From Candidatus Gottesmanbacteria bacterium (GTDB taxonomy: Bacteria; Patescibacteriota; Microgenomatia; UBA10105; UBA927): a DNA stretch of 64,000 nt. The stretch is from the NCBI GenBank assembly GCA_023245335.1, contig JAHFKK010000001.1:363282-427281 (forward strand). Direction: 5' to 3'. The translations under genes and the position numbers were made by a program. This document shows, in pieces, positions 7,265 through 55,075 of the stretch. Under the pieces are notes generated by a model. It did no database searches, was not told the origin of the DNA, and was given only the letters and a program-made list of their open reading frames with translations. Each line of letters opens with the position of its first letter. Within the stretch, counting starts at the first letter, position 1.

Positions 7265-7301
7265 TTGACAAGAGTTAGCACTCAATGTATATTAGTGCTA
7301 A
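7265..7301 (+). promoter_or_regulatory. Sigma70-like promoter (TTGACA-17-TATATT) overlapping a CIRCE operator (HrcA site)
   Basis: TTGACA at 7265..7270 and TATATT at 7288..7293. Inverted repeat TTAGCACTC-N9-TAGTGCTAA at 7275..7301, one mismatch from the CIRCE consensus TTAGCACTC-N9-GAGTGCTAA. It lies directly upstream of hrcA. Confidence 0.75.
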
Positions 7302-7311
7302 TTTCAATAAT

Positions 7312-8043
7312 ATGAATCCCGTAGCAGATCTCACTCCCAGACAGATTCAAATTCTGAAAGCGATTATCGACGAATATATCGCGACGGCGGAAGCCGTAGG
7401 GAGCGAAACATTGGAAAAAAAGTACAATCTCGGTGTTTCCCCGGCGACCATCCGCAATGAGATGGCACACCTCACCGAAATCGGAATGCTCAATCAGCCG
7501 CATACGTCCGCGGGGCGCAGCCCCACGCCTATCGCGCTCAAATATTACGTCGATCAGCTCATGAAGACCAAAGATATGTCGGTCGCGGAAGAAGTCTCGG
7601 TCAAGGAAAAAATTTGGGATTACCGACAAGAGATAGATAAGTTACTCCGGGAAGCGACCAAGACGCTCGCAGAAAAAACCAAGACACTTGCTATTACAGC
7701 GACGAACGAAGGAGACCTTTACTATGCAGGTGCTGCCAATATTTTGGAAATGCCGGAATTTTATGATTATCAACTGACGCATGAACTCTTCGGGACACTG
7801 GATGAATACGGATTTTGGTGGCACGTATTGGAACAGCACGACGACCTATTTTCCATATTAGTCGGCGACGATTTGTCGCATGGGGCACTCACTCAATGCG
7901 GATTTGTCTATCACAAGTTCAAAACGCCGCACGTATCCGGCGCCATCGGGATCGTCGGTCCGTCGAGAATGAACTATCCGTTTGTGATCCCGGTGGTACG
8001 ATACATGGGAGATCTCATAGATGAATTTGCGAGCAGTTGGTAA
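7312..8043 (+). CDS. hrcA: Heat-inducible transcription repressor HrcA
   Basis: N-terminal winged-helix LTPRQIQILKAIIDEYIATAEAVGSETL and HrcA-like length. First gene of the grpE-dnaK operon, behind the CIRCE site. Confidence 0.85.
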   Translation: MNPVADLTPRQIQILKAIIDEYIATAEAVGSETLEKKYNLGVSPATIRNEMAHLTEIGMLNQPHTSAGRSPTPIALKYYVDQLMKTKDMSVAEEVSVKEKIWDYRQEIDKLLREATKTLAEKTKTLAITATNEGDLYYAGAANILEMPEFYDYQLTHELFGTLDEYGFWWHVLEQHDDLFSILVGDDLSHGALTQCGFVYHKFKTPHVSGAIGIVGPSRMNYPFVIPVVRYMGDLIDEFASSW

Positions 8044-8583: not shown

Positions 8584-10494
8584 ATGGCAAAGATTATCGG
8601 TATTGATCTCGGAACGACAAATTCATGTGTATCCGTCATGTCAGGAGGAGCTCCTGAGGTGATTCATTCTGCTGAAGGCAGGAATGTGATTCCGTCGGTC
8701 GTCGACCCTATCAAAAATATCGTCGGTGACGTCGCCAAACGCCAGATGGTATTGAATCCCAAATCCACTATATTTTCCGTCAAACGTCTGATGGGCCGCA
8801 AATTCTCCGATCCCTCGGTACAAGCGGACATGAAATGGTTGCCCTATACGATAAAAGCCGGCAAAAACGACATGGCGGTCGTCGTCGTGGACGGCAAAGA
8901 GTTTACGCCGCAGGAAATTTCGGCAAAGATACTTGCCAAAATCAAAGCGGATGCCGAAAAGTTCCTGGGCGAACCCGTCAAACAGGCCGTCATCACGGTA
9001 CCCGCGTACTTCGATGACAGCCAGCGCCAGGCGACCAAACAGGCAGGGGAGATCGCAGGGCTCGAAGTCATGCGGATCCTCAATGAGCCGACGGCTGCGT
9101 CACTTGCATACGGATTGGATAAGAAAAATGCGCACACGATCGCAGTCTACGACTTGGGCGGTGGCACGTTTGACATCTCCATACTGGAATTAGGTGACGG
9201 CGTCTATGAAGTGAAAGCAACAAACGGCGATACCCATCTTGGTGGTGACGATTTCGATAAAGTAATCCTTGATTACCTTGCCGACGAGTTCAAGAAAGAA
9301 AACAGTGTGGATCTGCGGAAAGATTCGCAGGCGCTCCAGAGGCTTCGTGATGCTGCCGAAAAAGCAAAAATCGAGCTTTCATCTTCGATGGAAGCAGAGA
9401 TTAATCTGCCATTCATCACCCAGGGCAAAGACGGGCCTTTACACCTCGTCATGAAGCTTACCCGGGCGAAACTTGAGTCGCTCGTTGAACCGCTCATCCA
9501 AAAAAGCATCGAGCCGGTCAAGAAGTGTCTCGCGGACTCCAAGCTCAAAGTCGGGGACATCAATGAGATCGTTCTCGTGGGAGGCATGACCCGTATGCCG
9601 AAAGTAGTCGAAGTCGTGAAATCCTTCTTTGGTAAAGATCCCAACGCCACGGTAAATCCCGATGAAGTGGTGGCAGTAGGAGCGGCAGTTCAGGCCGGGG
9701 TTCTAACCGGAGAAGTCAAAGATGTCGTTCTTCTCGACGTGACGCCGCTTACTTTGAGCGTCGAAACATTGGGCGGAGTATCGACACCGATGATTTCGAG
9801 AAATACTACCGTGCCGACGAGCAAGACAGAAATCTACTCGACGGCCGCAGACAATCAGACGTCGGTAGAGATTAACGTCCTACAAGGAGAACGCCCGATG
9901 GCGACAGATAATAAATCGCTTGGACGGTTTGTCCTGTCCGGCATTCCGGCGGCACCGCGCGGCGTCCCGCAGGTTGAGGTGACGTTTGACATAGACGCTA
10001 ATGGTATTCTCAACGTGACTGCCAAGGACAAAGCGAGCGGCAAAGTAAGCTCGATAAAAATCACGGGCTCGACCGGTCTTTCGAAGGACGAGATCGAGAA
10101 GATGAAGAAAGAAGCCGAGGCCAATGCCACGGCAGATTCCGAAAAGAAAGATAAGATCGAGGCAAAAAACAAAGCGGATAACATGCTTTATGTCGCCGAG
10201 AAAACGTTGAAAGACGCCGGTGATAAAGCCAAGCCCGAGGATAAGACAGCAGTCGAGGAAAAGACGAAGGCACTGAAAGACATACTGGAGTCCGGATCCA
10301 AAGAAGATCTGGAAACCAAAACCAGCGAGCTTTCCGACGCAGTCCAAAAGGTCGGAGCTGCGATGTACCAGCAGAATCAGCCTCCGGCAGGAGGAGATCA
10401 GGCCCAACCGGGTGCTGATGCCGGAGTTACAGCTGAAGACGGCAAAAAAAAGGACGATAAGGCGAAAGCAGAAGAGGGAGAGGTGGTTAGCTAA
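8584..10494 (+). CDS. dnaK: Chaperone DnaK (Hsp70)
   Basis: Hallmark Hsp70 motifs [20 protein letters not shown] and EVLLLDVTPLSLG-like ([18 protein letters not shown]). 636 aa. Confidence 0.97.
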
Positions 10495-10495: not shown

Positions 10496-10927
10496 ATGAA
10501 AAATAAACATAAATCATATGGTATTGATTTATTGGTAATTTGTGATCACGCCTTATTTTCACAAGACAAAAAGCTCTCAATTATTGGTATATTTGACAGA
10601 CTGTTTGTGAAATCAGTGCCCGCCAATCACGCTAAAATGGTAATTGCGGCATCAATAGTTGGAAAAAATGACTCAGACTGTACCGTAAGCTTGGAGTTTA
10701 TCAGTCCAAGCGGAAAAAATCTGGTCGGAATTAAACCGATTTTTATGAATGTTAGGCTGGGAGCAAATGGCAAAGGGAATTTAATTAGTGAAATCGTCGG
10801 ATTTCCAGTATCAGAAGTCGGTGAATATAAGGTCCGAATGCTCATAAACGGAGAATCACTTCGAGAGATCCCCCTCTATGTGCAGCAGGTAATTTCAAAT
10901 GAAGACGTTAGAAAGCAACCCAATTGA
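10496..10927 (+). CDS. Hypothetical protein; first gene of an AT-rich foreign cassette inserted between dnaK and dnaJ
   Basis: ATG 2 nt after the dnaK stop. 143 aa, MKNKHKSYGIDLLVICDHALF... GC about 35% against about 52% for dnaK. No family recognised. Confidence 0.5.
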   Translation: MKNKHKSYGIDLLVICDHALFSQDKKLSIIGIFDRLFVKSVPANHAKMVIAASIVGKNDSDCTVSLEFISPSGKNLVGIKPIFMNVRLGANGKGNLISEIVGFPVSEVGEYKVRMLINGESLREIPLYVQQVISNEDVRKQPN

Positions 10928-11762
10928 GAGATATCCAACATATATTGATGAGATTGTAACTCCCTACGACATCAGCCAAGCTCCCTTTATTGACGGGTGT
11001 TTTAACGTCGATGAAACAGATTGGCGTTTAGCCAATAGCCAACTAACTGATGGTTTAGACTGTGCTGATAAGTACACTCGATATACTAGTGGTAATGAAC
11101 AAAATTTTATATTCAAAGCAGCCGAAGAGTGTAGTGTGGAGCCCCTTTCTGATCCGTTCGCGTCATATATTGGTAATCGTTGGATGGGTATTCCCGTAGC
11201 GAGAAGTGCTCCTATGGTTTCTCGCATGAATAGTCGAAGATATTATCTCGGTGTTGTGTCGTACGCGACATCAATTACTACTCTCGCAGGCTGGGATTCC
11301 GGTATACCGCAGGATGGGTTAACTGAAATTGACACAACATACATGCAAGGTGATGGGGTTTTACGTGCGTGGCTTAGGGATCATGATCATGCATGGCGAC
11401 ACATTGTTACATGGACAGGGAGCGATGGCGTCATGCATTATTATTTCATTGACTACGGAAGGAGCTGTCTTGATTTGCGAACACAGTGGAATGAAACAAA
11501 ATTACTTAACGATTCTGTCGGTGGCTGTTTTTGGGATATTGAGCATGATCCAGATAAAATAATAGAATATGTCAAGTGCATTCTCCGTATACCCGACTGG
11601 TTGATTAACTATAAATTAATGCAGTATGCATCATCGATGCAAAAGTATGATGTTGTAAATAAAGAATTTTATCTTCGTCGGGCATATGAGATGTCATCAT
11701 ATTTAATCAAGAGTAAGCGTAATCTACTACATGATGTTAGTAATTTTCTTTCGGCTAGGTAA
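10899..11762 (+). CDS. Hypothetical protein; second gene of the AT-rich cassette between dnaK and dnaJ
   Basis: 287 aa ORF that overlaps the previous ORF by 29 nt and ends 2 nt before the dnaJ ATG. AT-rich. No family recognised. Rich in Trp/Tyr/Asp, with an HDHAWRH segment. Confidence 0.5.
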
Positions 11763-11764: not shown

Positions 11765-12676
11765 ATGGCAACGAAACGCGATTATTACGAAATATTGGGA
11801 GTCGGGAAATCGGCTTCTGCTGCGGAAATTAAGTCCGCGTACCGGAAGCTCGCGTTGCAATGGCACCCGGACCGAAATAAAGCCGTAGACGCCAACGAGA
11901 AATTCAAGGAAATAAACGAAGCCTACGCAGTACTTTCCGATAGCCAAAAGAAAAGCGCGTACGACCAGTTCGGCCATGCAGCATTTCAGCCGGGTGGCGG
12001 TATGGGTGGGGCAGGCGGAGGCAATCCTTTTAGCGGCGGGTTCCGCCAACAGGGACCATTCCAGTACTACTATTCTTCAGGCGGACAACAGGGCGGGTCG
12101 CCCTTCTCCGGGTTTGAGGATATGATCGATCCGTTTGAGATATTCGAGCAGTTTTTTGGTGGAGGATTTTCTCCCCGCGGCCAGCGCGCGCGGCCGCACC
12201 CCGCATACGAAGTCACGATCGATTTCATGGATGCGGTCAAAGGTGCCACGCGTGAAGTGCACGTCCCCAAAGGTGGTGCGGGTGAAGGATCCGTACGGAA
12301 AACGATCAAAATTCCGGCCGGGGTCGACAGCGGCTCACGCATACGATTCGATGAATTTGATCTCGTCGTATCGGTGCGTCCTGACAAGCGGTTTACCAGA
12401 GAGGGGGATGACATCATACTCACGGAAGAAGTTCCGTTCAGCCTCGCCGCCCTGGGTGGAGTCGTAGACGTCCCGACCATAGAAGAATCGGTCAAAATCC
12501 GAATTCAGCCAGGTACCCAGCCCGGGACACTCATCCGCCTTCGCGGCAAAGGCGTGCCGCACGTCCGGGGAACCGGCCGTGGGGATCAGTACGTACGGGT
12601 GCAGTTACGGGTGCCGAGTCATTTATCCCGCGAGCAAAAAGAACTCTTGGAGAAGCTGGAAAGAAGCGGGGTATGA
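11765..12676 (+). CDS. dnaJ: DnaJ-family co-chaperone (J domain plus G/F-rich region plus C-terminal domains, no zinc-finger insert)
   Basis: J domain DYYEILGV...HPDRN with the HPD motif. Gly/Phe-rich region. The protein has zero cysteines, so the CxxCxGxG zinc finger is absent. Confidence 0.85.
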
Positions 12677-16533: not shown

Positions 16534-16577
16534 GAGTGCCTTGGGAGCACCAATTGCGCTCTCATTTTTATATCAGT

Positions 16578-17012
16578 ATGCCAGCAAAATCCACGAAAAA
16601 AGCAGTAAAAGCTACGAAGGCGACGAAAGAAGCTAAAGTAACCAAAAAAGTAAGCGCCGAAAAAACGGTGAAAGCGGAGAAACCGGTGAAAGTCGTCAAG
16701 CAAACATCCAAAAAGTCGACAAAAGCCGCCCCGAAGATAGACGTATCCCAGGTTCCCTCACCGGAAAAACAGGAGATCATCGCGCAATTTGCCGTCAAAT
16801 CAGGTGATACCGGGAGTCCCGAGGTGCAGATAGCGCTTCTTACCAGGAGAATTGAGAAATTGGTGGGGCATCTCAAAACCAATCCGCACGACAATCATTC
16901 ACGCCGGGGTTTACTTGGCATCGTGAGCAAACGCCGACGGCTTCTCAACTATCTTGAGAAAAAAGATGCAAAACGGGTGACAGTCATTAAGTCAAAGTTA
17001 GGATTAACATAA
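16578..17012 (+). CDS. rpsO: 30S ribosomal protein S15 with about 60 aa Lys/Ala-rich N-terminal extension
   Basis: C-terminal 89 aa match the S15 core ([38 protein letters not shown]...). The N-terminal extension [24 protein letters not shown]... resembles a histone H1 tail. Confidence 0.85.
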
Positions 17013-17152: not shown

Positions 17153-19354
17153 ATGAAAGTAATTACCAAAACGGCTGAAATAGCCGGGAAGAAGTTAAGT
17201 TTGGAAGTCGGTCGGTTTGCCGAACAGGCCAGTGCCGCAGTGCTTGCACGATACGGCGATACCATGGTCCTTGCGACGGTCACCGCATCAAGCAAAGAAA
17301 CAACGCTGGATTATTTCCCGTTAAGTGTCGAGTATGTTGAACGGCTTTATGCCGGTGGCCGCATCAAAGGCAGCCGTTGGGTGAAGCGGGAAGGCAGGCC
17401 GACAGATGATGCAATCCTTGCAGGTCGGGTTATCGACCGGTCGATCAGGCCGCTGTTTCCCAAAAGCTACAACCATGACGTACAGGTCATCATAACCGTT
17501 CTTTCTATGGACGGAGAACATGATCCGGATGTGTTGGGATTGGTTGCGACATCAGCTGCAATTGCCATTTCACCTATCCCGTGGAACGGCCCGATCGCAG
17601 GAGTCAGGATGGGGTATGTCGCAAATAGCGAAGGCGGGAAAGGCGCATATCTCGTCAATCCGACGTCTACGGAACAGGAAACAAGCGAATTTGATTTCGT
17701 CGTTTCTTCCGACCGCACGAAAGTCGTGATGCTCGAGGGCGGATTCTGTGAAACACCGGAGCCTTTAGTGTTTGAAGCGATCAAAGAAGCCAAAAAGGTC
17801 AACGGTGAGATCATTGATCTTATCGATTCCCTGGTCAAAGAAGTCGGGAAAAAGAAAATCGCGCTTTCCGAAGTTTCGGAAGCGGATGACCTCAAGAAGA
17901 AAATTGAAAAAGACTACAAGAAAGAGATGGCCGAAGCGTTTGCCAAAAAAGCCGAGAAGGAATTCGGCGGCGATGAAGTAACCGCGCTGGCCGCGAAAAT
18001 CGTTACTGATTACGGCACGGACTACACGACCAAAGATGTAGAAGCCGCGCTTGACGCCCTGTTCAAAAAACAGGTCCGTGAGAATGTATTGACCGCCGGC
18101 AAACGGTTTGACGGACGGAAAATCGATGAGGTACGCCCCATCGAAATCGAAGTGGGCATACTTTCCCGGACACACGGAAGCGCCATGTTTAAACGGGGTC
18201 AAACCCAGGCGCTCACGGTCGCGACTCTTGGTACGCCGAGTCTTGAACAGCTTATCGAAAGCCCGATGGGTGAGGAATCCAAGCGGTATATCCATCACTA
18301 CAGCATGCCGCCGTATTCCGTCGGGGAAACCGGCCGCGTTGGGACACCGTCGCGCCGCGAAATCGGTCACGGAGCGCTCGCAGAACGGGCACTTTTGGCG
18401 GTCATTCCGAGTGAAGACGTGTTTCCGTATACCATTCGGTTGGTCAGCGAAATCATGTCCAGCAACGGATCCACATCTATGGCGTCAACCTGCGGATCGA
18501 CGCTCGCGCTTATGGATGCGGGAGTTCCCATCAAAGAACCGGTTGCCGGTATTTCTGTAGGACTCATGACCGATAAGGAAAAGAAGAACGGCAAGTATGT
18601 CCTTCTTACCGACATCATGGGGATTGAGGATTTTTCCGGTGACATGGATTTCAAAGTCGCGGGTACCAAAAATGGTATCACGGCGATCCAGCTCGATATC
18701 AAAATCGACGGATTGACGGATGAAATCTGTGAGGAAACGCTGGAGCGCGCACGGGTTGCGCGTATGGGCATCTTGGAAAAGATGCTCGCGGTGATTTCCG
18801 CGCCGAGGACGAACGTATCCCAATACGCGCCGAAGGTGAAGGTCATCAAGATCCCGACGGAGCGAATCGGAGAGGTAATCGGTCCCGGAGGGAAAGTCAT
18901 CCGCAATATCATCGCGACAACCGGCGCGACCGTAGACGTCAATGACGACGGCTCGGTATTTATCTCCGGTACGGATGCGGACGGCGTCCAAAAAGCCGTG
19001 GAATGGGTAGAGGGACTCACCCATGACGTCGAAGTAAACGAAGAATTTGAGGGAGAAGTCAAACGCATATTGCCGTTTGGCGCCTTCGTCGAAATCTTAC
19101 CGGGCAAAGAAGGCATGGTCCACGTCTCACAGATGTCGACCGGTTTCGTCGATAATCCGGAAAAGGTTGTCTCCATCGGACAAAAGGTAAAAGTCCGGGT
19201 CATGGAAATTGACGATATGCACAGGATCAATCTCTCCATGCTTTTTGGAGAAGATGCCAAAGCAAAACCAGCCGAGTCGCGAAGCGGTGGCGGTGACCGC
19301 GGCGGCAGGGGTGGCGGACGTGGCGGCTACGGCGGCGGACGAAGACGGTATTAA
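17153..19354 (+). CDS. pnp: Polyribonucleotide nucleotidyltransferase (PNPase) with RGG-rich C-terminal tail
   Basis: Two RNase PH domains, a KH domain (IPTERIGEVIGPGGKVIRNI) and an S1 domain, then GGGDRGGRGGGRGGYGGGRRRY. Confidence 0.95.
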   Translation: MKVITKTAEIAGKKLSLEVGRFAEQASAAVLARYGDTMVLATVTASSKETTLDYFPLSVEYVERLYAGGRIKGSRWVKREGRPTDDAILAGRVIDRSIRPLFPKSYNHDVQVIITVLSMDGEHDPDVLGLVATSAAIAISPIPWNGPIAGVRMGYVANSEGGKGAYLVNPTSTEQETSEFDFVVSSDRTKVVMLEGGFCETPEPLVFEAIKEAKKVNGEIIDLIDSLVKEVGKKKIALSEVSEADDLKKKIEKDYKKEMAEAFAKKAEKEFGGDEVTALAAKIVTDYGTDYTTKDVEAALDALFKKQVRENVLTAGKRFDGRKIDEVRPIEIEVGILSRTHGSAMFKRGQTQALTVATLGTPSLEQLIESPMGEESKRYIHHYSMPPYSVGETGRVGTPSRREIGHGALAERALLAVIPSEDVFPYTIRLVSEIMSSNGSTSMASTCGSTLALMDAGVPIKEPVAGISVGLMTDKEKKNGKYVLLTDIMGIEDFSGDMDFKVAGTKNGITAIQLDIKIDGLTDEICEETLERARVARMGILEKMLAVISAPRTNVSQYAPKVKVIKIPTERIGEVIGPGGKVIRNIIATTGATVDVNDDGSVFISGTDADGVQKAVEWVEGLTHDVEVNEEFEGEVKRILPFGAFVEILPGKEGMVHVSQMSTGFVDNPEKVVSIGQKVKVRVMEIDDMHRINLSMLFGEDAKAKPAESRSGGGDRGGRGGGRGGYGGGRRRY

Positions 19355-19540
19355 ACGACCGAATGCCGAATCTGTGCATAAGCAGCGCCCACAAAATATT
19401 CATGTTTCTTCAACTCCCTCGTGAAGTGAAGATAGCTATACGTACCCTCGTGTTTTCACCCGTACGTAAGGGATCGCTTAAATCCGTTGGTCCGTATTGG
19501 TTTTAGAGTATTGTATTGAAGAATTTGTTATGATGATACT

Positions 19541-20626
19541 ATGTCAAAGTTATTGGATGAAGTGACGATTCTCCGCAAAAAATTGCAGGAAGTCCACGTC
19601 CCGCCCGATTTGGAAGCACGGGTTACGGCAAACCTCGAAGAGATTGAGCGGTTGGAGCATGATATATCCGCACGTGTGCATATCGAGCAGATGATGCGGT
19701 ATATAGATTGGGTCATAAATCTCCCGTGGGATATACGAAGTAAAGATACGCTGGATCTTGCGAATGCGCGGAAGATTTTTGAATCACATCATTATGGACT
19801 ACAGCCGGTCAAGGAACGCATTCTTGAATATTTGGCGGTATTAAAGCTCAATGAAGACCGATGGGAAAAAGAAAAAAAAGTGGAGGAAGCACACTCGACG
19901 CACTCCATGTTAGCCCGGCGTGCACCGATTTTGTGTCTCGTCGGTTTGGTCGGTACCGGAAAGACGACACTCGCAAAATCCATTGCCGAGGCGATGGGCA
20001 GACAGTTTGTCCGTATAGCCTTCGGAGGTATGTCCGATGCGCTGGAACTGCGTGGTCAGTCACGCGTCCGGCCCGATGCGGAAATCGGCCTTATCCTCAA
20101 AGGATTGCGGTATGCGGGCACCAAAAATCCGGTCATGTTGCTGGATGAAATCGACCGCGTATCCGAGGCCACCCGGGGAGATATCATGGGAGTCCTGGTC
20201 GAGCTTTTGGATCCGGAACAAAATTCCGCGTTTGTGGACCATTATCTCGATTACCCATTTGATCTATCAGACGTTCTTTTCGTCGCGACCAGCAATAATA
20301 CGACCAATATCGCGACAGCAGTGCTTGATAGGTTGGAGCCTATCCAAATGCCTTCGTATACGGATGAGGAAAAGATAAAGATCGCCAGGGAATACGTCAT
20401 GCCCGCACTCCTTCACGAATCAGGGCTTACGTCAGAGAATTTATCGATTGATGATGCAATCTGGCCGAAATTAGTACGGCCTTTGGGGTATGATGCCGGT
20501 ATACGGAGTATTGAACGGACACTCAATAGTCTGTGTCGTAAAGTAGCGTTGTCCATTATCGAAGGAAAGGCAAAAACATTTCGCGTCGACGAAACCAACA
20601 TCAAAGACTTCATCGAAGCGTATTAA
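19541..20626 (+). CDS. Lon-like AAA+ ATPase module lacking the N-terminal LAN domain and the C-terminal protease domain
   Basis: Lon signature stretches HYGLQPVKERILEYLAV, Walker A LVGLVGTGKTTLAKSIA, GRQFVRIAFGG, LLDEIDRVS, LLDPEQNSAFVDHYLDYPFDLSDVLFVATSN and LDRLEPIQMPSYTDEEK. The protein ends after the alpha-helical subdomain. rnj starts 10 nt later. Confidence 0.75.
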   Translation: MSKLLDEVTILRKKLQEVHVPPDLEARVTANLEEIERLEHDISARVHIEQMMRYIDWVINLPWDIRSKDTLDLANARKIFESHHYGLQPVKERILEYLAVLKLNEDRWEKEKKVEEAHSTHSMLARRAPILCLVGLVGTGKTTLAKSIAEAMGRQFVRIAFGGMSDALELRGQSRVRPDAEIGLILKGLRYAGTKNPVMLLDEIDRVSEATRGDIMGVLVELLDPEQNSAFVDHYLDYPFDLSDVLFVATSNNTTNIATAVLDRLEPIQMPSYTDEEKIKIAREYVMPALLHESGLTSENLSIDDAIWPKLVRPLGYDAGIRSIERTLNSLCRKVALSIIEGKAKTFRVDETNIKDFIEAY

Positions 20627-20635: not shown

Positions 20636-22384
20636 ATGAGAAGAATTTTTATTTCAAAACCCGCCCAACTGCCGACCCGTCAGCATGTAAATTTCGGCGA
20701 GTACGGATCAGGCAAAGATTCCGTACGTATCGTTCCGCTTGGGGGATCGGGGAATGTCACCAAGAACATGTATCTCTATGAGTACCGGTATGACGGGAAA
20801 CTGTCCGATATCCTCATTGTGGATTGTGGCATCGGATTTCCGGATGATGAGATGTTCGGCGTGGATCTGGTGCTTCCCGACATCCGGTATCTGTCTGACA
20901 AACGGGATAAAATCCGCGGATTGGTCTTCACGCACGGGCACGATGATCACATCGGAGGTATTCCATATATCTACCCCAAGCTAGGTCACATCCCCATGTG
21001 GGGCCCGAAGCTCGCTGCGAGCTTCGCGAATCTGAAACTCAAAGAAACCGGTATCCGCGAACGGGTGCGGGCGCTCAACTTTGACGATCATATCGATATC
21101 GGACCGTTTCATTTGTCCTTCATACGTTTGACGCACTCGGTACCGGATACATCACACATTGTCATCGAAACTCCTGTCGGCATTTTTTACCATGGCAGCG
21201 ATTTCAAGTTCGATCCGACGCCACTTGATGACAAGCCGTCGGAATTGTGGAAAATAAATGCGGTGGGAAAAAAGGGCGTCTTGTGTCTACTCTCCGACAG
21301 TTTAGGGAGCGAACGGCCCGGGTTCACGCCGTCGGAACAGATTATCGGTGAAACGATCGAGAAAGAGCTGAAATTGAGTGCCGGCAAGGTGTTGTTTACG
21401 ACGCAATCAAGCAACATCTCCCGTATACAGCTTGCGATCGAGATAGCGATAAAATACGGTCGGAAGATCGCATTTCTTGGCCGGAGCATCGATCAGAATG
21501 TAGAAGAATCGGTCAAGTTGGGATACATGAAGTTCCCGCGGGATGTCATCATACGTGATCAGGATTTGAAACGCATGCCGGCAAACAAACAGTTTCTCAT
21601 CGTCGCAGGGGCGCAGGGCCAGTCGACATCGAATCTTTCGAGGATCGCTAGCGACAATCATAAATTTGTACACCTCACCGATCAGGATACGGTTATCCTT
21701 TCTGCGGATCCCATCCCGGGCCGGGAAAACGATGTTGATCGCCTGATAAATAATATTTATCGGCATGGGAGCCGTGTCGCGTATTCCGACATTATGGAAG
21801 ATCTGCACGTTTCCGGACACGGCAGCAGCGGGGATATGATGCTCCTTTTGTCCGCATTGGGACCGAAATACGTGATGCCCATAGGCGGCACCTATAAACA
21901 CCTTATGCAATACCGTAGGCTTGCTATGGATCTGGGGTACGATAAACGCGCGGTACTCATCCCCGATGACGGAGAAGTGCTTGAGTTCCGGAAAGACGCT
22001 GCGCCTCGGGTGGTTGACCATCTCACCCTTGAGCACGTCATGATTGACGGGTTGGGGGTTGGAGACGTGGGGTCTGTTGTCCTTCGTGACCGGCAAACCA
22101 TCGCTCATGAAGGGATTGTGGTCGTCGTCGTACCCATAGAGGAGGCAACGGGCAGGATGACCAGTCCGCCGGAGATCATTACCCGGGGATTTGTCTACGT
22201 CAAGGAAGCCGGACGGCTTCTTGATCGGTCGACGGATGTCGTTTCCCGCTCGCTTCGTCTCAAGAAGGGGAGAATCCAGGATTGGCAGTTTGTACGGAAA
22301 CAGATAGAGGAGTCGCTCGGAGAGTTTCTTCTCAAAGAAACCGGCAGGCGGCCGCTTATCGTACCGGTAGTACTAGAGGTGTAG
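20636..22384 (+). CDS. rnj: Ribonuclease J
   Basis: Metallo-beta-lactamase motif VFTHGHDDHIGG, a beta-CASP region and an RNA-metabolising C-terminal region. 582 aa. Confidence 0.9.
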   Translation: MRRIFISKPAQLPTRQHVNFGEYGSGKDSVRIVPLGGSGNVTKNMYLYEYRYDGKLSDILIVDCGIGFPDDEMFGVDLVLPDIRYLSDKRDKIRGLVFTHGHDDHIGGIPYIYPKLGHIPMWGPKLAASFANLKLKETGIRERVRALNFDDHIDIGPFHLSFIRLTHSVPDTSHIVIETPVGIFYHGSDFKFDPTPLDDKPSELWKINAVGKKGVLCLLSDSLGSERPGFTPSEQIIGETIEKELKLSAGKVLFTTQSSNISRIQLAIEIAIKYGRKIAFLGRSIDQNVEESVKLGYMKFPRDVIIRDQDLKRMPANKQFLIVAGAQGQSTSNLSRIASDNHKFVHLTDQDTVILSADPIPGRENDVDRLINNIYRHGSRVAYSDIMEDLHVSGHGSSGDMMLLLSALGPKYVMPIGGTYKHLMQYRRLAMDLGYDKRAVLIPDDGEVLEFRKDAAPRVVDHLTLEHVMIDGLGVGDVGSVVLRDRQTIAHEGIVVVVVPIEEATGRMTSPPEIITRGFVYVKEAGRLLDRSTDVVSRSLRLKKGRIQDWQFVRKQIEESLGEFLLKETGRRPLIVPVVLEV

Positions 22385-29218: not shown

Positions 29219-30097
29219 CTATATCTTCAGCTTTTCTACGAGAACGCCGGAGGAAATGATAAGGAGTCCGCCGACGATCTGGATCGGTGTCAATGATTCT
29301 TTGAGTATCGGCACTGCCATAAATGCCACCAGAACCGGAGTAAATGACATGATCATCGTGACAAATGATGCGCTCGCATATTTAAATGCGTGAAACTGGA
29401 ATGTCGTGAGGGCGAAGTCCCCGACGGTGATACCCAGTATCAAAAGCCATTCCTTCGGGATATGGAGTGTCGTATGTGTTGCTGCGATGAGAATTACAGG
29501 GATGAGTGCGATCGCAAATCTACCGGACGCGCCGAGCCCCGGTGTCATACGGTTGGCTGCGAGCTTGATAAGCACGCCGTTTCCTATGGCAAGAAGCATC
29601 GCTTCAAGAAGCGTCAGGAGATCGCCCGTCGACAAATGTAAGAGCTGGCCGTTGGTCGTGAGTAAGTAGGCGCCGGAAAGAATGGTGATGAGGAGCACGA
29701 GTTTCTTTTTCGTCACCGGTTCATGGAGGAATATCGCTGCGAAGATGATGATAAATACGGAGACCATCCGGATGAGGAATGAAAAATTCACAGCCGGAGT
29801 ATTCGCGAGTGCGAATGCCTCGACGAAGCTTACCGCGACGGAGCTTATGAGTGCCATGCCGACGAGGAGCCAGATATCCTTTTTTGTGAGTTTGCGGACA
29901 TTTTTCTTTTCTTTGGAAAATACGAAGAGCCAGTACGGAGCCGCCAGTATCGTCGTCCAGAAGGCGAGGTTGTACGGATTTTCGCCGTGACTCAAAACTA
30001 TACGCCCCAATACGATACTCGTCGCCCAGAAGAACGACGAAAGGAACGTAAAAATAAATCCTTTAGATAATTTCATGCAGATATCGGTTTGCGACAA
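29219..30097 (-). CDS. EamA/DMT-family transporter
   Basis: 10-TM protein with the duplicated EamA architecture. Confidence 0.75.
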   Translation of the reverse strand: MSQTDICMKLSKGFIFTFLSSFFWATSIVLGRIVLSHGENPYNLAFWTTILAAPYWLFVFSKEKKNVRKLTKKDIWLLVGMALISSVAVSFVEAFALANTPAVNFSFLIRMVSVFIIIFAAIFLHEPVTKKKLVLLITILSGAYLLTTNGQLLHLSTGDLLTLLEAMLLAIGNGVLIKLAANRMTPGLGASGRFAIALIPVILIAATHTTLHIPKEWLLILGITVGDFALTTFQFHAFKYASASFVTMIMSFTPVLVAFMAVPILKESLTPIQIVGGLLIISSGVLVEKLKI

Positions 30098-30980
30098 AGA
30101 CGCTGCTCACGATAATGATACCCCCGATCATTTCCGGCACCCCCACCATTTCGTGATACATAACATAGCCGAACAGAAGAGCAAATACATTGTCTAAAAG
30201 TAGTACCTGTGTGCCGATGACCGCATCCAGATGGTTGAAGGCAAAAATTTCCAAAGGATTTACCAGGATATTCATACCCGTGCCTATCACTAGACCGAGG
30301 AGGACGTGCGGATTGGTAAACGCGGAGACAGAGATAGTTTCACCTCGAAGTATTGCTATGAGAAATCCGGATATCGCCGCGATGGTCATGACGGAGATCG
30401 TAATTTCGTGTGTGTTGAGATGTGTGGAAAGAAGCTTACGGCCTACATAAAACCACGCCATCGTAGCGGTCGCAAGGAGCGCAAACCACTCGCCCTTTCC
30501 GAATACCGTAAGATGAGGAACGAACGACTTGGTTGCGACCATGGTGATGCCGATAAGGGACGTGATAAGAAGCGCGATCAGTTTTCCGTTCAGTGGTTTT
30601 TTGAGAACGAAAAATGCGTATAGATATGAAAAGAACGGCACAGAAGCAAATATGACGGTGACGTTGATAAGTTTCGCGTTGATTGCTGCAAGCGTGCTGA
30701 AATAAACAGCTATGGAATACCCGATGATTCCCATAGAAAGCAGTATGAGGAAATCGCGCGCCGGCATTGTAATAATTCGTTTCCAACGCAGGTGTTTCCG
30801 GAATAGAGCCATGAGTATGAGCGCTCCGAAGCTGATGCGTAGGTACACCTGGGTCATGGGTGGGAATCCTTCGGCAAGTAATCGAGATGAAACGTTTAGT
30901 AGACTATATGCGGCAGCGACAAGTACCAGGCCTGCGACGGCGAGACGATGTACAGAGTAACGGGAGAGTTGTTTGATCAT
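30063..30980 (-). CDS. EamA/DMT-family transporter
   Basis: 10-TM protein with the duplicated EamA architecture. Arranged in tandem with its neighbours. Confidence 0.75.
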   Translation of the reverse strand: MIKQLSRYSVHRLAVAGLVLVAAAYSLLNVSSRLLAEGFPPMTQVYLRISFGALILMALFRKHLRWKRIITMPARDFLILLSMGIIGYSIAVYFSTLAAINAKLINVTVIFASVPFFSYLYAFFVLKKPLNGKLIALLITSLIGITMVATKSFVPHLTVFGKGEWFALLATATMAWFYVGRKLLSTHLNTHEITISVMTIAAISGFLIAILRGETISVSAFTNPHVLLGLVIGTGMNILVNPLEIFAFNHLDAVIGTQVLLLDNVFALLFGYVMYHEMVGVPEMIGGIIIVSSVFVANRYLHEII

Positions 30981-31879: not shown

Positions 31880-31929
31880 TCCAGGTTAATGATATCACTC
31901 AAAGCGTTGGATAGCTACGAAAGGCAGAT

Positions 31930-32463
31930 TCAAATGTACGGGAGGAGCTGGGGGATTTTGGCGTAGCCGGAACTCTCGGTGAAGTGCCCGGCGCCTTTGA
32001 CGAATATATAGGTAGCACCGAATCGTTTGCTCATGGCTTCCATGGTAAACGCCGTCATATACGGGTCGTTATCCGAGGACGTGACGTAGATATCCTTCAC
32101 ATTCTTTCTAATAGCATTATGATTCATTTTTGTTTTCCAAAATGACTGATGCTCGACCGTGAGATCATCAAAATCCCATCCGGAGACGAGAAATAGTTTC
32201 CTGAACTTATGTTTTTCCGCAAGCCGCATGGCGAGAAGCGATCCCAGGCTATGCCCAAAGACAATAAAGTCGTCGGCAAGCGGTACCGTTTTTTCTATGA
32301 AGTCCATTTGTGATTTGAGGTCCGGGGCATCCGTTTCCATGGTTGGGATTTCCGGGAGATAGACGGTATATCCTTTTGTCTCAAGCTCTTTTTTCAGCCA
32401 CGGGGACCAATGTTTATCCGGCCCGTTGTGCCAAGCGTGGAGGATAAGTGCGGATTTTGTCAT
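31930..32463 (-). CDS. Alpha/beta serine hydrolase, RBBP9/YdeN family
   Basis: ILHAWHNGPDKHW, the nucleophile elbow FGHSLGS, and C-terminal GAGHF. Start set at the internal Met MTKSALIL. Confidence 0.65.
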   Translation of the reverse strand: MTKSALILHAWHNGPDKHWSPWLKKELETKGYTVYLPEIPTMETDAPDLKSQMDFIEKTVPLADDFIVFGHSLGSLLAMRLAEKHKFRKLFLVSGWDFDDLTVEHQSFWKTKMNHNAIRKNVKDIYVTSSDNDPYMTAFTMEAMSKRFGATYIFVKGAGHFTESSGYAKIPQLLPYI

Positions 32464-32548
32464 GGTTAGATTATAGTGGATCCTTGCAAGTAGAAAACAA
32501 CGGCGTTTTTGATTTGACCAGTTTTGAGCGTTATAATAGGCCGCGACT

Positions 32549-33193: not shown

Positions 33194-33291
33194 GAAGCGA
33201 ATATAGTTAATACTCAAGGCAGTCTTGTCGCGGTAAATCTTGCCCGCGGATGTGATGGGTGAGAAGCAGTCGGTGATCCTATAAATACCAT

Positions 33292-38838: not shown

Positions 38839-41268
38839 ATGAAGCTACCAAGCGCGCTTACCTCACTCATCAAAAAGAAGGAAGACGGAAAAGAATACTA
38901 CTTTTCCCTCTACATGGATGTCGATGCCGCAGCCGTTGCCGTGTGGAGCATGGATCCGGCCAAATTACCGACAATAGCCAGCTTCGCTCACGGCGTCGTA
39001 AAAGAGAATACCTGGGAAGCGCGGATACAGGTCATTGACCGGTTGTTGTCGGCCGCGGAAGACAAGGTAGGGGTAACAAAGGCGATCACCAAAACAGTTT
39101 TCGGCATGCCGGGCGCGTACCTCACTGCGGAAGGGAACATCGCTGATGAGATCCGGCCGCAGCTTAAAAAACTTGCACAGGTATTGGAACTTAAACCTGT
39201 GGGATTCGTTCCGTTGTCCCAAGCGCTTGCGTTTTCTCTCAAAAACGACGAAGGCGTACCGCCGAGCATCATCCTCATCGGGTGTTCCCAGAAAAATGCG
39301 CTCATCACCCTTTTTCGGGTCGGGAAACTTACCAGCCAGGATACGGTCGATCTCGCGGATGATCCGGCGGCTGTCGTGGAAGCGATCCTGAAAAAGAATC
39401 AGGATGGCGATGTGTTGCCTTCCCGGATGCTTCTGTACGGCGGGGATACCGTGAGACTCGAGGATGTACGGACGAAATTATTGAAACACCCCTGGCCCAC
39501 GCGGACAAACTTTCTCCACTTCCCGAAAATAGAGATCGTATCCGTAGAGTCGCTTCTCCACGCGGTTTCCCTGGCCGGGGCCGCGGAACTTGCTTCTGAC
39601 ATCGGGGAGCCGATTGAAGCCGCAGGAACGGTAGCGACGGTCGTTGCGCAACCGCGCCCGTCCATACTTCCCTCAGAGCCGGTCATTACACCTGCCGACA
39701 CGACTTCGGAAAAGGAAGAAGTGGAAGAAGAAGCGGTTGATGAGCGCGAAGAATCGGGTATCGCCAGTGCAGGTGAGGAAGAGGGAGAACCCGGTTCGTT
39801 GGAATCGGAAGCAGAAACAGTGGGTGATGCTATCGAAAAAGAAGAATCATCCGATGAAGAAGTCTCAAATGTAGAACTCGTGACACCCGAGTCTCTGGGA
39901 TTCCGGAAAGAAGACATACTGGAAAAAACTCCGGCTTCACATATGCCGCGGCCGGTCGTCGCGAAACCTATTAATCGTGAAGAGCTGGAAGAGGACGTAT
40001 TTGAGGAAGAAGACGAAGAAGAAGTGGAAGATACAAACGCAAAAAAGCCATTCAAATTGCCATTTAGCATTCCTACCGTCCGGGCGGATATGTTTGCTCC
40101 GGTCACACGCTTCCTGTCGCACCTTCGGTTTCCCAAAATGAAAAATACCATGTATATTTTCGGTGCTGTGGGTGTGGTACTTCTCTTGGGGGTCCTCTTT
40201 TATTTCGTCCCACGGGTCACGGTAACCGTTCTCGTATCGCCGCAGTCGGTGGACCAGTCGACGACGCTGACGGTCAATCCGACCGCAACTGTCGCAGACC
40301 CCGCGAGTAAAATCATACCGGGACACACGCAAAGCAAATCCATAAGCGGCGATAAAACAATTGCAGTGACCGGCAAGAAAAACGTCGGCGATCCGTCCAA
40401 GGGAACCGTGACTATCTATAATAAAGTCACGAATAGTAAGACGCTCCCTAAGGGAACGGTGCTTACGGGAAACAGTCTGTCATTTACTCTCGACAGTGAT
40501 GTTTCCATCGCTTCAGCCAGTGAAGACATAGGTTCCATCACCTTCGGAAAAGCGACCGCAAACGTCACCGCCAAAGACATAGGACCCAACGGCAATCTGC
40601 CGGCCGGCGTAGAATTCGTATTTACCGGTGTGAGTGGTTCGCAGGCATCAGCCCGGAACGATGCGGCATTTACCGGCGGCAACAGCAAATCAGTGACGGT
40701 CATTTCGCGCGCCGACCAGGACGGACTCGTGAAAGCCCTGACGGATGATTTGGTGGGGCAGGCGAAATCGCAGTTAGCCGCAAGTGCGACAGGCGGGGAG
40801 CATCTCATAGATGAAACGGTAAAAACTGCAGTGTCCGATAAGTCATTTGATCAGGAGATAGATCAGCAGGCGAGCCAGCTGCACGGCAAAATCACGATAA
40901 CGGTAAGCGGGATAAGCATAAGCGATGAAGACGTAAAAGCGATCCTTACGTCTCTGGTAGAAGGGAAAGTACCGGCAGGCTATGCCCTGGCGCCGGATCA
41001 AACCAATGTGTCGGTTTCCAACGTGACGGTCAAAAAAGACGGCTCCATAACGCTGACTGCGAAACTCACGGCGATCGCACTTCCGAAAGTCGACACCGAG
41101 GCACTTAAAACGACCCTCGCAGGAAAGGACGTCACCGCAGCGCTTACCATCCTCAAACAAACGACCGGGGTAGCAGGGGCAGAGTATAAGTTTGCGTTTT
41201 CGCCCGTGCAAAGCCGGTTGCCCATGAACCGCAACAATATCACCATTACCACAGCAGTCCAGCGATAG
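38839..41268 (+). CDS. Bitopic membrane protein: actin-like (FtsA/PilM-like) cytoplasmic N-domain, acidic linker, one TM, large beta-rich extracellular domain
   Basis: N-terminal 260 aa look like a degenerate FtsA/PilM ASKHA fold (YYFSLYMDVDAAAVAVWSMD; IILIGCSQKNALITLFRVGKL; MLLYGGDTVRLEDV). Glu-rich linker. TM helix IFGAVGVVLLLGVLFYFV. About 390 aa Thr/Val/Ser-rich ectodomain. Confidence 0.45.
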   Translation: MKLPSALTSLIKKKEDGKEYYFSLYMDVDAAAVAVWSMDPAKLPTIASFAHGVVKENTWEARIQVIDRLLSAAEDKVGVTKAITKTVFGMPGAYLTAEGNIADEIRPQLKKLAQVLELKPVGFVPLSQALAFSLKNDEGVPPSIILIGCSQKNALITLFRVGKLTSQDTVDLADDPAAVVEAILKKNQDGDVLPSRMLLYGGDTVRLEDVRTKLLKHPWPTRTNFLHFPKIEIVSVESLLHAVSLAGAAELASDIGEPIEAAGTVATVVAQPRPSILPSEPVITPADTTSEKEEVEEEAVDEREESGIASAGEEEGEPGSLESEAETVGDAIEKEESSDEEVSNVELVTPESLGFRKEDILEKTPASHMPRPVVAKPINREELEEDVFEEEDEEEVEDTNAKKPFKLPFSIPTVRADMFAPVTRFLSHLRFPKMKNTMYIFGAVGVVLLLGVLFYFVPRVTVTVLVSPQSVDQSTTLTVNPTATVADPASKIIPGHTQSKSISGDKTIAVTGKKNVGDPSKGTVTIYNKVTNSKTLPKGTVLTGNSLSFTLDSDVSIASASEDIGSITFGKATANVTAKDIGPNGNLPAGVEFVFTGVSGSQASARNDAAFTGGNSKSVTVISRADQDGLVKALTDDLVGQAKSQLAASATGGEHLIDETVKTAVSDKSFDQEIDQQASQLHGKITITVSGISISDEDVKAILTSLVEGKVPAGYALAPDQTNVSVSNVTVKKDGSITLTAKLTAIALPKVDTEALKTTLAGKDVTAALTILKQTTGVAGAEYKFAFSPVQSRLPMNRNNITITTAVQR

Positions 41269-52665: not shown

Positions 52666-53421
52666 ATGGCTAAATTTATCGGAGGGACTAGTAAATATCT
52701 AATCCAGCAAAAATTTTATTACATGCTGGGAGGGTATCTTCTCATGATTTGTCTTGTGGTCGCGTTGCTGTGGTATTGGGTGTTTATACTCCATTTTGTC
52801 CACAATATTTGGGTTATTTTGACAGCTACGATAGTTTTTCTTATCGTTTACAAGGTCATTACTTACTTTGTTAATGACGGGATGAAGCACGAATTTGCTT
52901 TTGGTTATGGGATAACCGGTGAAGCAAAAGTAGCAGAGGAACTCAACCGTTTACCCGCCAGCTACACAGTTATTCAAGATGTGAAACTTTCAGATACAAA
53001 GACAAACATTGATTTTGTAGTCCTTGGCCCAAATGGAATATGGGCAGTTGAAGTAAAAAGTCACAAAGGCAATATCACTTATGATGGAAGCCGGTTGTTG
53101 AGATATGGCCGGCCACTCGAAAAGAATTTTATCGGTCAGTCACGTCTCGAGGCTACCGCGCTAACTGATTATCTTCAGTCACATATAGACCGTCACATAT
53201 ATGTTGATTCACTCCTCGTATTTTCAAGTCCAAAAGCGACCATGCGCTTTGGTGAGCACCCGATACAAGATGTGGTTATAATTGGTGCTTCATGGCTTAA
53301 CCGGCATATCCTTGAACATCAGTCGCAAATTAAGTTTACACCGCAGGATATCGACCAAATTGCACGTGTCCTGCAATTAGAAAAAATAGATGGTAGTAAA
53401 CCTGCAATGGGTGTAAAATAG
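52666..53421 (+). CDS. NERD (nuclease-related domain) protein with N-terminal TM helices
   Basis: Three N-terminal hydrophobic helices, then a NERD-like core (GEAKVAEELNRL...IDFVVLGPNGIWAVEVKSHKGNI). AT-rich. Confidence 0.65.
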   Translation: MAKFIGGTSKYLIQQKFYYMLGGYLLMICLVVALLWYWVFILHFVHNIWVILTATIVFLIVYKVITYFVNDGMKHEFAFGYGITGEAKVAEELNRLPASYTVIQDVKLSDTKTNIDFVVLGPNGIWAVEVKSHKGNITYDGSRLLRYGRPLEKNFIGQSRLEATALTDYLQSHIDRHIYVDSLLVFSSPKATMRFGEHPIQDVVIIGASWLNRHILEHQSQIKFTPQDIDQIARVLQLEKIDGSKPAMGVK

Positions 53422-53443: not shown

Positions 53444-55075
53444 ATGCCACAGCTTACTTGGATCGGAAAAGATAAAGTCGAAAACCACGACAAGGACCTT
53501 CCTTTTCGAGTGCTGAAACCAAACAAAAAACTTTCAGTCGGTGAGGACGACAATCTTCTTATACAAGGTGACAATCTCGAAGCATTAAAAGCTTTAATGC
53601 CGTTTTACTACAATAAGATTAAGTGTATTTATATTGATCCACCATATAACACGGGAAACGAGAAGTGGGTTTATAACGACAAGGTAAATTCGGCCCGAAT
53701 TAAAAAATGGCTTCATTCCGTAGTAGGAACGGAAGATCTTGAACGTCACGATAAGTGGTTATGTATGATTTATCCTAGAATTAAACTTCTTAGGGATTTA
53801 TTAAAAGAAGACGGTGCTATTTTTGTTTCGATAGACGATAACGAAGTAGACAATCTTAGGCTTTTAATGGACGAAGTATTTGGGTCTAAAAACTTCGTAG
53901 CTATGATAATAGTTCAAATTAATCCAAGAGGAAGAACATTAGATAGATTTTTAGCTAAAACCCACGAGTATATTCTTCTTTATGCGAAAAATGCCGAACT
54001 CGATTCTTGTATAAATCTTATTCCTAAAGTAGGTCATTCTTTAGGAACATATAACAAAAAGGACGACAAAGGTATTTATAGAACACTTGAATTAAGAAAT
54101 CGGAACCCCGTTTTTAACCGCAAAAACCGACCTAATTTATATTACCCAATCTTTGTAAATCCTGTTGATTTTAAGATTTCTTTAACTAAAGACACCAAAC
54201 ACACAATTGAGGTTTTCCCCTTGAACAGCACAGGTGTTGAAGGGTGTTGGACTTGGGGAAAAGATAAAGTAGCACAAGAAATAGGTACTCTACTTGGCAA
54301 AAAGGTTTCTACCGGTGTATGGAGAATCTATAGAAAAGATTACCTTTACGACGATCAGGGAAATGAGTCATTAACTAAGGCAAAAGCACTTTGGACAGAA
54401 TCAGAATTTAATAATGAAAATGGGAAAGAGATTGTAAGGAAAATATTTGGTGGGAATTCGCCCTTTGACTATCCAAAATCGGTAGATCTGATTAAGCATT
54501 GTATCAAATTAGGATCTGGAAGTAGCGATATTATTATGGATTCTTTCGCCGGATCAGGTACCACAGGTCACGCAGTATTAGAATTAAATAAAGAAGATGG
54601 TGGTAAACGAAAGTTTATATTGGTCGAGCTTGAAGAGGAAATAGCTAAAAAAACAACCGCAGTTAGACTTCAAAAAGTAATCAAAGGATATAACGGAGCT
54701 ATGTATCCTAACGGGACAGGGCAAGGCTTCCAGTATTTAGATTTAAACGGAGAATTATTTGACAGAACAGGTATTATAAACAACGTAGTAAATTACGAAG
54801 ACCTAGCCTCTTATATTTACTTTACTGAAACAAAGTCATATTTAGATCTAGGAATAATCAGAAATTCCTATATAGGTAGTTTTGGTTCAAATAATTATTT
54901 CTTATTATTCAACGGTATAGGAAAGAATGTTTTAGACGAGAGGTTTTTAAAGTCAATTTCCAGATATGAAGGGAAAAAGGTTGTATTTGCCGATAAATGC
55001 CTATTAGACGACGATTATTGTGAAAAGCACAACATTGTCTTTAAACAAATTCCTTACGAATTAAAGAAATATTAA
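53444..55075 (+). CDS. mod: Type III restriction-modification methyltransferase (Mod), N6-adenine beta-class
   Basis: Motif IV IYIDPPYNTGN near the N-terminus and motif I DSFAGSGTTGHA near residue 365, the beta-class order. AT-rich. Directly followed by res. Confidence 0.85.
   Translation: MPQLTWIGKDKVENHDKDLPFRVLKPNKKLSVGEDDNLLIQGDNLEALKALMPFYYNKIKCIYIDPPYNTGNEKWVYNDKVNSARIKKWLHSVVGTEDLERHDKWLCMIYPRIKLLRDLLKEDGAIFVSIDDNEVDNLRLLMDEVFGSKNFVAMIIVQINPRGRTLDRFLAKTHEYILLYAKNAELDSCINLIPKVGHSLGTYNKKDDKGIYRTLELRNRNPVFNRKNRPNLYYPIFVNPVDFKISLTKDTKHTIEVFPLNSTGVEGCWTWGKDKVAQEIGTLLGKKVSTGVWRIYRKDYLYDDQGNESLTKAKALWTESEFNNENGKEIVRKIFGGNSPFDYPKSVDLIKHCIKLGSGSSDIIMDSFAGSGTTGHAVLELNKEDGGKRKFILVELEEEIAKKTTAVRLQKVIKGYNGAMYPNGTGQGFQYLDLNGELFDRTGIINNVVNYEDLASYIYFTETKSYLDLGIIRNSYIGSFGSNNYFLLFNGIGKNVLDERFLKSISRYEGKKVVFADKCLLDDDYCEKHNIVFKQIPYELKKY

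Follow-up and report, generated by a model that had tools for sequence, protein, structure and literature searches.

Lon is classified in print as an ATPase fused to a protease, and each of its described forms, LonA, LonB, LonC and LonBA, is defined with a protease domain (PMC9569914). Here, we describe a gene that departs from this plan. It lies in a stretch of 64,000 nucleotides of a Candidatus Gottesmanbacteria bacterium (contig JAHFKK010000001.1, positions 363,282 to 427,281; hereafter “the window”), where it occupies positions 19541..20626 of the + strand; the protein encoded by this open reading frame (ORF) is referred to as X. Sequence comparisons place X in a conserved family that descends from LonA and is found in Gottesman-, Levy-, Shapiro- and Dojkabacteria and other Microgenomates (Patescibacteria, candidate phyla radiation or CPR), a lineage in which a Lon-type ATPase is naturally, widely and stably maintained without its protease. 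We favour, with moderate confidence, the view that X works alone and without proteolysis, as a remodelling or chaperone-like factor driven by ATP, which it would hydrolyse in Lon-like rings.

Among described systems, LonA (endopeptidase La, MEROPS S16, TIGR00763) has the same fold as X, is 37-45% identical to it over the whole of X, and shares identical Walker B, sensor-1, arginine finger and sensor-2 elements, the tyrosine of the pre-sensor-1 β-hairpin and a Lon-type lid. X differs from LonA in having neither N domain nor S16 protease, in its GL[VAQ]G Walker A, in a pore loop with x-Pro and acidic residues at positions 400 and 402, in a linker insert and in a C-terminal aromatic residue. A second close comparison is EcLon(235-584) (PDB 6n2i), a stable ADP-binding fragment from limited proteolysis, which is ordered from Ala247 and whose packing is that of an open helical hexamer (PMC6722904). 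X starts and ends where this fragment does; however, the fragment is laboratory-made while X is a natural gene product.

Other AAA+ proteins have lost one of two activities. In LonC (e.g. of Meiothermus taiwanensis), one of the two Lon activities is also lost and a chaperone-like role has been proposed (PMC3391209, PMC13069640), but there the protease is live and the ATPase dead, whereas in X the ATPase is apparently live and the protease gone. The FtsHi pseudo-proteases of chloroplasts are AAA+ protease homologues that lost proteolysis, kept the ATPase and act as non-proteolytic motors (PMC8197885); they still have a protease domain, though a degenerate one, and fall in the classical AAA clade, whereas in X, a member of the HCLR/Lon lineage, the domain is gone altogether. 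ClpX and HslU are, like X, ATPases of the HCLR clade without a covalently attached peptidase, but in both the pore loop carries a conserved aromatic GYVG motif and the gene of the partner peptidase is linked or known; X lacks such a loop, and no peptidase is known to partner it. HslU engages its partner by its C-terminal tail. With its catalytic residues, lid and pre-sensor-1 β-hairpin, X falls among Lon-type AAA+ modules (HCLR; Pfam AAA and Lon_lid), while the missing protease (P) domain, the missing transmembrane insert and the intact Walker motifs set it apart from LonB, LonC and LonBA. In all three of these, an A domain precedes a P domain in one chain, with a membrane anchor in LonB and a degenerate Walker motif in LonC (PMC9569914).

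Domain architecture and boundaries of X

The X gene runs from an ATG to a TAA codon and encodes 361 residues. Pfam detects two domains and no others, AAA (residues 131-268, 62.5 bits) and Lon_lid (residues 293-345, 42.4 bits, E 5.3e-11), both scoring above gathering thresholds. The NCBIfam lon model TIGR00763 covers X through model positions 256-573 of 795 only, and X scores below the LonA equivalog cut-offs (334.9 bits versus 608 for TIGR00763; 272 versus 891 for NF008053). In the PDB, X matches B. subtilis LonA best by sequence (3m6a, E 1.5e-80); E. coli Lon (6u5z) aligns over Lon residues 249-579. X consists of a three-helix bundle and an AAA+ module, corresponding to approximately LonA residues 247-580 alone. 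It has no S16 protease domain (no Pfam Lon_C; the ORF stops at the lid), its protein sequence contains no GPSAG/Ser-Lys motif, and the N-terminal LON substrate-binding domain and the coiled-coil HI(CC) region are absent, the alignment opening at Lon residue ~247.

Following the protein from its N-terminus (all features on the + strand), the three-helix bundle, equivalent to Lon NTD3H, occupies residues 1-60 (19541..19720; helices 2-17, 22-37 and 42-60 in the AlphaFold2 model), with the start codon falling where EcLon residue ~247 aligns. Before strand β1, a linker insert of about 20 residues (approximately 104-127; 19850..19921) faces a gap in BsLon and YpLon. This insert is family-specific and variable in length, being low-complexity in other subclades and longer than 100 residues in P0144 and P0162; some clade members also carry Gln/Pro-rich disordered N-terminal extensions. 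The α-helical lid subdomain, defined by Pfam Lon_lid and the AlphaFold2 model, spans residues 271-357 (20351..20611) and includes the sensor-2 Arg322 (20504-20506). The protein ends in the peptide IEAY-COOH (20612..20623; [IV][ED]xY), which is conserved in relatives.

A first AlphaFold2 model, computed from an alignment of 45 close homologues, reached a predicted local distance difference test score (pLDDT) of 58 and was not used; a deeper alignment gave a model with pLDDT 89.8 and a predicted TM-score (pTM) of 0.86. This model consists of the three-helix bundle (residues 2-60), more helices, an α/β core and the lid, with low confidence only in the insert (pLDDT 61-63) and the last residues. 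The top Foldseek matches are all LonA or LONP1, the best reciprocal one being 6n2i (TM-scores 0.85/0.91, root-mean-square deviation 2.2 Å). Since the 6n2i fragment is autonomous and has the same bounds, X can be regarded as the natural equivalent of a known autonomous domain unit.

An earlier note, made from the DNA sequence alone, had described the ORF at 19541-20626 as a stand-alone Lon AAA+ module lacking the N-terminal substrate-binding domain, the protease domain and the Ser-Lys dyad (GPSAG/K), with an atypical Walker A (GLVGTGKTT) and with rnj close behind. The ORF and its two Pfam domains, the TIGR00763 span, the hidden Markov model (HMM) searches described below and the rnj start codon at 20636 all agree with this description, except that the ORF begins 134 residues before Walker A and not about 120.

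Conserved catalytic residues and a remodelled pore loop 1

We compared 30 members of the protease-less clade with 45 canonical Lons, residue by residue, using Lon numbering and the functional roles assigned to Lon ATPase residues in PMC7239648. Six catalytic residues are invariant in both sets (30/30 and 45/45): the Walker A lysine K362, the Walker B residues D423 and E424, sensor-1 N473, the trans-acting arginine finger R484 and sensor-2 R542. In X, Walker A is GLVGTGKTT (residues 135-143, 19943..19969; GPPGVGKTS in Lon) and Walker B is LLDEID (residues 200-205, 20138..20155), with D202/E203 equivalent to D423/E424. The segment 20294..20332 runs from sensor-1 Asn252 (20294-20296) to arginine finger Arg264 (20330-20332), the equivalents of N473 and R484. 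Also mostly retained in the clade are Y294 and W297 of the three-helix bundle (Y54 and W57 in X) and Y456 of the pre-sensor-1 hairpin. A trans-acting arginine finger would be meaningful only in an oligomer. The unusual Walker A is a clade-specific trait: unchanged across 120 close relatives of X, it reads GL[VAQ]G in the clade versus GPPG in Lon, the first proline being Leu in 25 of the 30 clade members and Pro in 42 of the 45 canonical Lons.

Pore loop 1 has been rebuilt. In Lon, translocation is driven by Tyr398 and Ile399, which intercalate with the backbone of the substrate (PMC7239648). The loop of X, RGQSRVRPDAEIG (residues 171-183, 20051..20089), stands where Lon has RGHRRTY(V/I)GAMPG and places Arg-Pro at Tyr398-Val/Ile399; it is near-invariant in X's own subfamily, where 94% of members have Arg at the Tyr position. 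Across the clade, the pattern is x-Pro-Asp/Glu-Ala-Glu (x-P-[DE]-A-E-P-G). Position 398, Tyr in 45/45 canonical Lons, is Phe in 7 of the 30, Ser in 4, Arg, His, Asn, Glu or Gln in 3 each, and other residues in the remainder. Position 399, always Val, Ile or Leu in canonical Lons (45/45), is Pro in 19/30, and acidic residues appear at 400 (Asp/Glu in 26/30; Gly in 43/45 canonical) and 402 (Glu in 26/30; Met/Leu in 41/45 canonical). Upstream in the loop, the canonical His394 (45/45) is variable in the clade (Gln in 13/30) and Arg395 (44/45) is Ser in 22/30. The earlier assertion that every Lon ATPase signature is present therefore stands for Walker A and B, sensor-1, the arginine finger and sensor-2, but does not extend to the Tyr-Val/Ile pair of pore loop 1. 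Its suggestion of an ATPase repurposed as an unfoldase or chaperone is likewise upheld in part: the invariant catalytic residues support a repurposed ATPase in general, but “unfoldase” is doubtful as the pore-loop aromatic with which Lon grips and pulls polypeptides (PMC7239648) is not conserved. With the translocating Tyr-hydrophobic pair not maintained, we prefer a remodelling or chaperone-like ATPase to a processive unfoldase.

The extreme C-terminus is a further conserved feature. It reads [IV][ED]xTyr in 118 of the 120 close relatives, and a C-terminal Trp or Tyr is found in 10 of 13 species-level genomes, nine with [YF][LIV]Px[WY]-COOH and one (L011) with IEAY.

Family distribution, descent and selection

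The short form is the rule among relatives of X. The 120 closest homologues, at 74-100% identity, all have the same two domains and a length of 342-384 residues, so that a full-length Lon in close relatives, which the earlier note had named as grounds for refutation, was not encountered in this set. In a wider-clade profile search, 119 of the 120 best matches measure 347-398 residues, with source names including Gottesmanbacteria, Shapirobacteria, Microgenomates and Patescibacteria. An exhaustive HMMER search over 1.84 billion representative sequences recovered X's own cluster and about 17 more short clusters (50% identity level) at 36-55% identity to X, all of which end 227-234 residues past Walker A; canonical LonA (770-850 residues) appeared at ~40-47% identity. 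For the full-length Lons closest to X, the source names retrieved were Clostridiales and Anaerolineales only. An ORF of the X family, 341-408 codons long, is present in 13/13 species-level genomes, which include Levybacteria and Shapirobacteria metagenome-assembled genomes (MAGs), and a Dojkabacteria member (P0142) was identified separately from these. In a neighbour-joining tree of the shared region, computed without bootstrap support, the protease-less sequences form a single clade separate from the 45 canonical LonAs.

The gene is under strong purifying selection: between X and three orthologues, non-synonymous differences per site (pN) amount to 0.13-0.16, against saturation at synonymous sites (pS ~0.8). 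Its GC content is that of the neighbouring genes, and its chromosomal position is native and ancient. Thus, the short form shared across relatives, its restriction to one clade, purifying selection and native GC content together indicate that the domain loss is ancient and the gene selectively maintained.

These data bear directly on whether X might be a recent truncation, a pseudogene remnant or a sequencing or assembly artefact of a full-length lon, as the earlier note had feared in proposing a “recently truncated Lon” and asking for read support. That idea has the missing N and P domains to recommend it and nothing more. A protein identical to X is present in independent assemblies, the same boundaries recur in hundreds of clusters and in the 13 species genomes, the domain boundaries are clean, and selection is strong. 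Moreover, the pnp stop codon lies 186 nucleotides 5’ of X and a complete RNase J gene follows immediately 3’, so that a frameshifted N or P domain could not fit between the flanking genes. We regard this explanation as refuted, with a negligible chance of being correct.

In the library of papers searched, we found neither an account of a Lon ATPase that lacks its protease nor any treatment of Lon in Patescibacteria, and the family is apparently undescribed. In databases, relatives of X are labelled “AAA family ATPase”, which is uninformative, or “ATP-dependent Lon protease”, which is wrong as they have no protease; any reconstruction of metabolism or proteostasis in which they are counted as Lon is therefore in error. 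The family constitutes a natural experiment on the capacities of the Lon motor alone, bears on the long-debated protease-independent, chaperone-like roles of Lon, and is relevant to how CPR bacteria, with reduced genomes that are poorly understood, handle proteostasis or RNA turnover.

Search for a separate protease

The earlier note had proposed looking for a Lon protease domain encoded elsewhere. We built HMMs of the N and P regions from the 45 canonical Lons and searched the window together with 23 loci of the short clade (353 kb in total). Neither the P nor the N domain gave a match at E <= 1, while control loci scored between 1e-88 and 1e-91 for P and between 1e-84 and 1e-87 for N. Using tblastn with approximate E. 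coli Lon P- and N-domain probes, X alone matched as a Lon relative; a weak P-domain match at 43091-43387 was rejected since it sits in a pyrimidine-nucleoside phosphorylase-like gene. An ORF of 809 codons (38839..41268), considered as a candidate full-length Lon, was likewise rejected, as it has no Pfam match and is not Lon. No peptidase was identified among the 39 annotated window ORFs of at least 180 residues, and none adjoins X in the window. The same holds for 23 out of 24 related loci that we inspected. The exception, L091, has two M16 peptidase genes just upstream of X and an M23 peptidase gene downstream.

Could X nevertheless be one half of a split Lon, i.e. an ATPase subunit docking by its C-terminal aromatic residue onto a separate peptidase (S16/Lon_C, ClpP/HslV-like or M16), as in ClpX-ClpP and HslU-HslV? 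Heteromeric AAA+ proteases are a known design (PMC9569914), and the conserved free C-terminal Tyr/Trp resembles a docking peptide, although it could equally cap, in cis, the lid surface that is covered in Lon by the linker and P domain. The M16 pair and M23 gene at L091 would provide candidate partners at one divergent locus, but no peptidase adjoins X in the window or the other 23 loci, no Lon_C was found within the 353 kb, and the pore-loop Tyr-hydrophobic pair that would feed a peptidase is not conserved. We therefore consider a split Lon rather unlikely.

A role in anti-phage defence, such as that of BrxL-type proteins, was also looked for: PADLOC returned only generic P-loop matches to X, the best being TRIP13 (36 bits, residues 85-176), and X lies in a housekeeping operon, not a defence island.

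A proposed mode of action

In the remodelling or chaperone-like reading, X would assemble into Lon-like hexamers, open or closed, and hydrolyse ATP without proteolysis. We infer both properties from the conserved trans-acting arginine finger and from the behaviour of EcLon(235-584). We do not expect X to translocate polypeptides processively as classical Lon does, since in place of the Tyr-Val/Ile grip it has an acidic loop that contains proline. Instead, the acidic pore loop, the C-terminal aromatic peptide or both would engage a client or partner. The acidity of the loop suggests basic clients, and a link to the Arg/Gly-rich tails of polynucleotide phosphorylase (PNPase) described below is speculative. 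Also counted in favour of a remodelling or chaperone-like role is the position of groES-groEL, which is divergently adjacent to X in L014 and L018 and nearby in L008; in the Dojkabacteria locus, the genes near X are Cpn10/Cpn60.

Several points weigh on the other side. An aromatic residue is kept at the Tyr position in 8/30 clade members (Phe in 7, Tyr in 1), and these may still translocate polypeptides. The Lon protease domain adds to ring stability, so that X, which has none, may not close rings. The gene has no CIRCE (controlling inverted repeat of chaperone expression) heat-shock operator upstream, though the genome uses CIRCE for hrcA/dnaK. The protease search covers, of this 1.2-Mb genome, the window, and an unlinked Lon or partner peptidase may be encoded elsewhere in it. 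Finally, ATP hydrolysis, oligomeric state and client of X are all inferred.

Genomic context and a possible link to RNA turnover

Around X, the window carries, in order, hrcA (with CIRCE), dnaK, a gene without Pfam match, dnaJ, nusA, infB, a DHH-family gene, rpsO, pnp, X, rnj, ftsK and an HTH_25 gene. Upstream of X, pnp (17153..19354, + strand) encodes a PNPase of 733 residues recognised by Pfam, and is separated from X by an intergenic spacer of 186 nucleotides (19355..19540). On the + strand, this spacer contains no consensus promoter or terminator above shuffled expectation and no obvious Shine-Dalgarno sequence. Downstream, rnj (20636..22384, + strand; Pfam) encodes a complete RNase J of 582 residues and begins 9 nucleotides past the X stop codon. 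In relatives L004, L005, L017 and L022, ORFs overlap within pnp-X-rnj, which together with the short spacing fits co-transcription of the three genes. In this lineage, X shares its orientation with pnp and rnj and lies tightly against them, and is therefore probably co-expressed with these RNA-turnover genes.

The adjacency of pnp and X is conserved, that of X and rnj in most Microgenomatia loci, and the block nusA...pnp-X-rnj-ftsK-HTH25 is complete in 7/13 species-level genomes (down to ~50% identity), partial in 3 and missing in 3. At the most divergent locus examined (L092, 37% identity), X still lies between pnp and ftsK, with intervening genes and without rnj. In addition, rnj is not beside X in L006, L008, L012, L014, L018, L021, L091 and L093. 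Where the packing is broken, other neighbours appear: a family-4 uracil-DNA glycosylase (UDG) gene directly downstream of X in L019, L020 and L021 (the window UDG, 63375-63965, is 43 kb away), and an RNase H-like gene. No partner gene is common to all X loci.

The PNPase encoded next to X ends in an Arg/Gly-rich tail predicted to be disordered (window ~19250-19351; ...SRSGGGDRGGRGGGRGGYGGGRRRY). Basic R/G/P/S-rich tails extending 30-100 residues past the S1 domain are present in all Microgenomatia PNPases examined, including those of L011-L029, and look like a lineage-specific RNA-binding or scaffold extension.

This context raises the question of whether X is an accessory ATPase of RNA decay, which would remodel PNPase, RNase J or ribonucleoprotein substrates, or handle the Arg-rich PNPase tail via its acidic pore, as part of a CPR degradosome-like assembly. 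The tight packing of pnp-X-rnj, its persistence in over half of the species-level genomes and partly in three more, the retained position between pnp and ftsK in L092, the nucleic-acid enzymes among the other neighbours, the basic tails on all PNPases of X loci and the Arg at the Tyr position in X's subfamily are all consistent with such a role. However, because the whole nusA...ftsK-HTH25 block is syntenic, X may owe its place beside pnp and rnj to inherited gene order and not to a functional link, and rnj is absent from X's side in nine loci. X has no RNA-binding domain, and its conserved acidic pore residues speak against nucleic-acid threading. On balance, we hold this role to be quite improbable. 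Its most specific form is a Patescibacteria degradosome-like machine, in which a Lon-derived hexamer with an acidic, Tyr-less pore would grip the Arg/Gly tail of PNPase or other basic tails of RNA-binding proteins, dock by its C-terminal Tyr and couple ATP hydrolysis to the activity or turnover of PNPase/RNase J. This we see as a long shot, although a role of this type, if true, would be without precedent among known Lon relatives.

Other features of the window and related sequences

A near-perfect CIRCE element, TTAGCACTCAATGTATATTAGTGCTAA (1 mismatch), is located at 7275-7301 and extends into the start of hrcA (7285..8043). Next come dnaK (8584..10494), an ORF of 287 codons without Pfam match at the expected grpE site (10899..11762), and dnaJ (11765..12676). 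CIRCE-type control of X was considered and rejected: in the window, the element is present before hrcA/dnaK, while neither the region upstream of X nor, in L014 and L018, the stretch between groES and X contains it.

As listed, rpsO (16536-17012) has a Lys/Ala-rich N-terminal extension of ~65 residues before the S15 domain, where relatives' S15 proteins measure 89-134 residues; either the start codon lies further downstream or this is a lineage-specific basic extension. The 809-codon ORF at 38839-41268 sits directly after alaS and gives no Pfam match at E <= 1e-5. The segment 52666-57389 holds a module of restriction-modification-like or defence type, composed of a NERD nuclease-related gene (52666..53421), an N6/N4 DNA methylase gene (53444..55075) and a ResIII/DEAD helicase gene (55077..57389). 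EamA-family transporter genes are unusually numerous, with at least 5 confirmed by Pfam in 64 kb (29219-34712, 49472-50587 and 58870-59811) and a sixth copy (30063..30980) inferred from L001.

Several TPA (third party annotation) MAG records used here (L011-L013, L015, L017-L019) are titled “uncultured Gammaproteobacteria” or “Pseudomonadales bacterium” although their gene content and synteny are clearly those of Patescibacteria; these labels are probably placeholders or erroneous. Lastly, the sequences P0122-P0140, which score above canonical Lons against X, are proteins of 900-1700 residues with two or three tandem Lon-type AAA+ modules and the pore loop RGHNRTW[KR]xxQPG, P0122 being from Candidatus Dependentiae. 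They apparently represent another unusual Lon-derived architecture.

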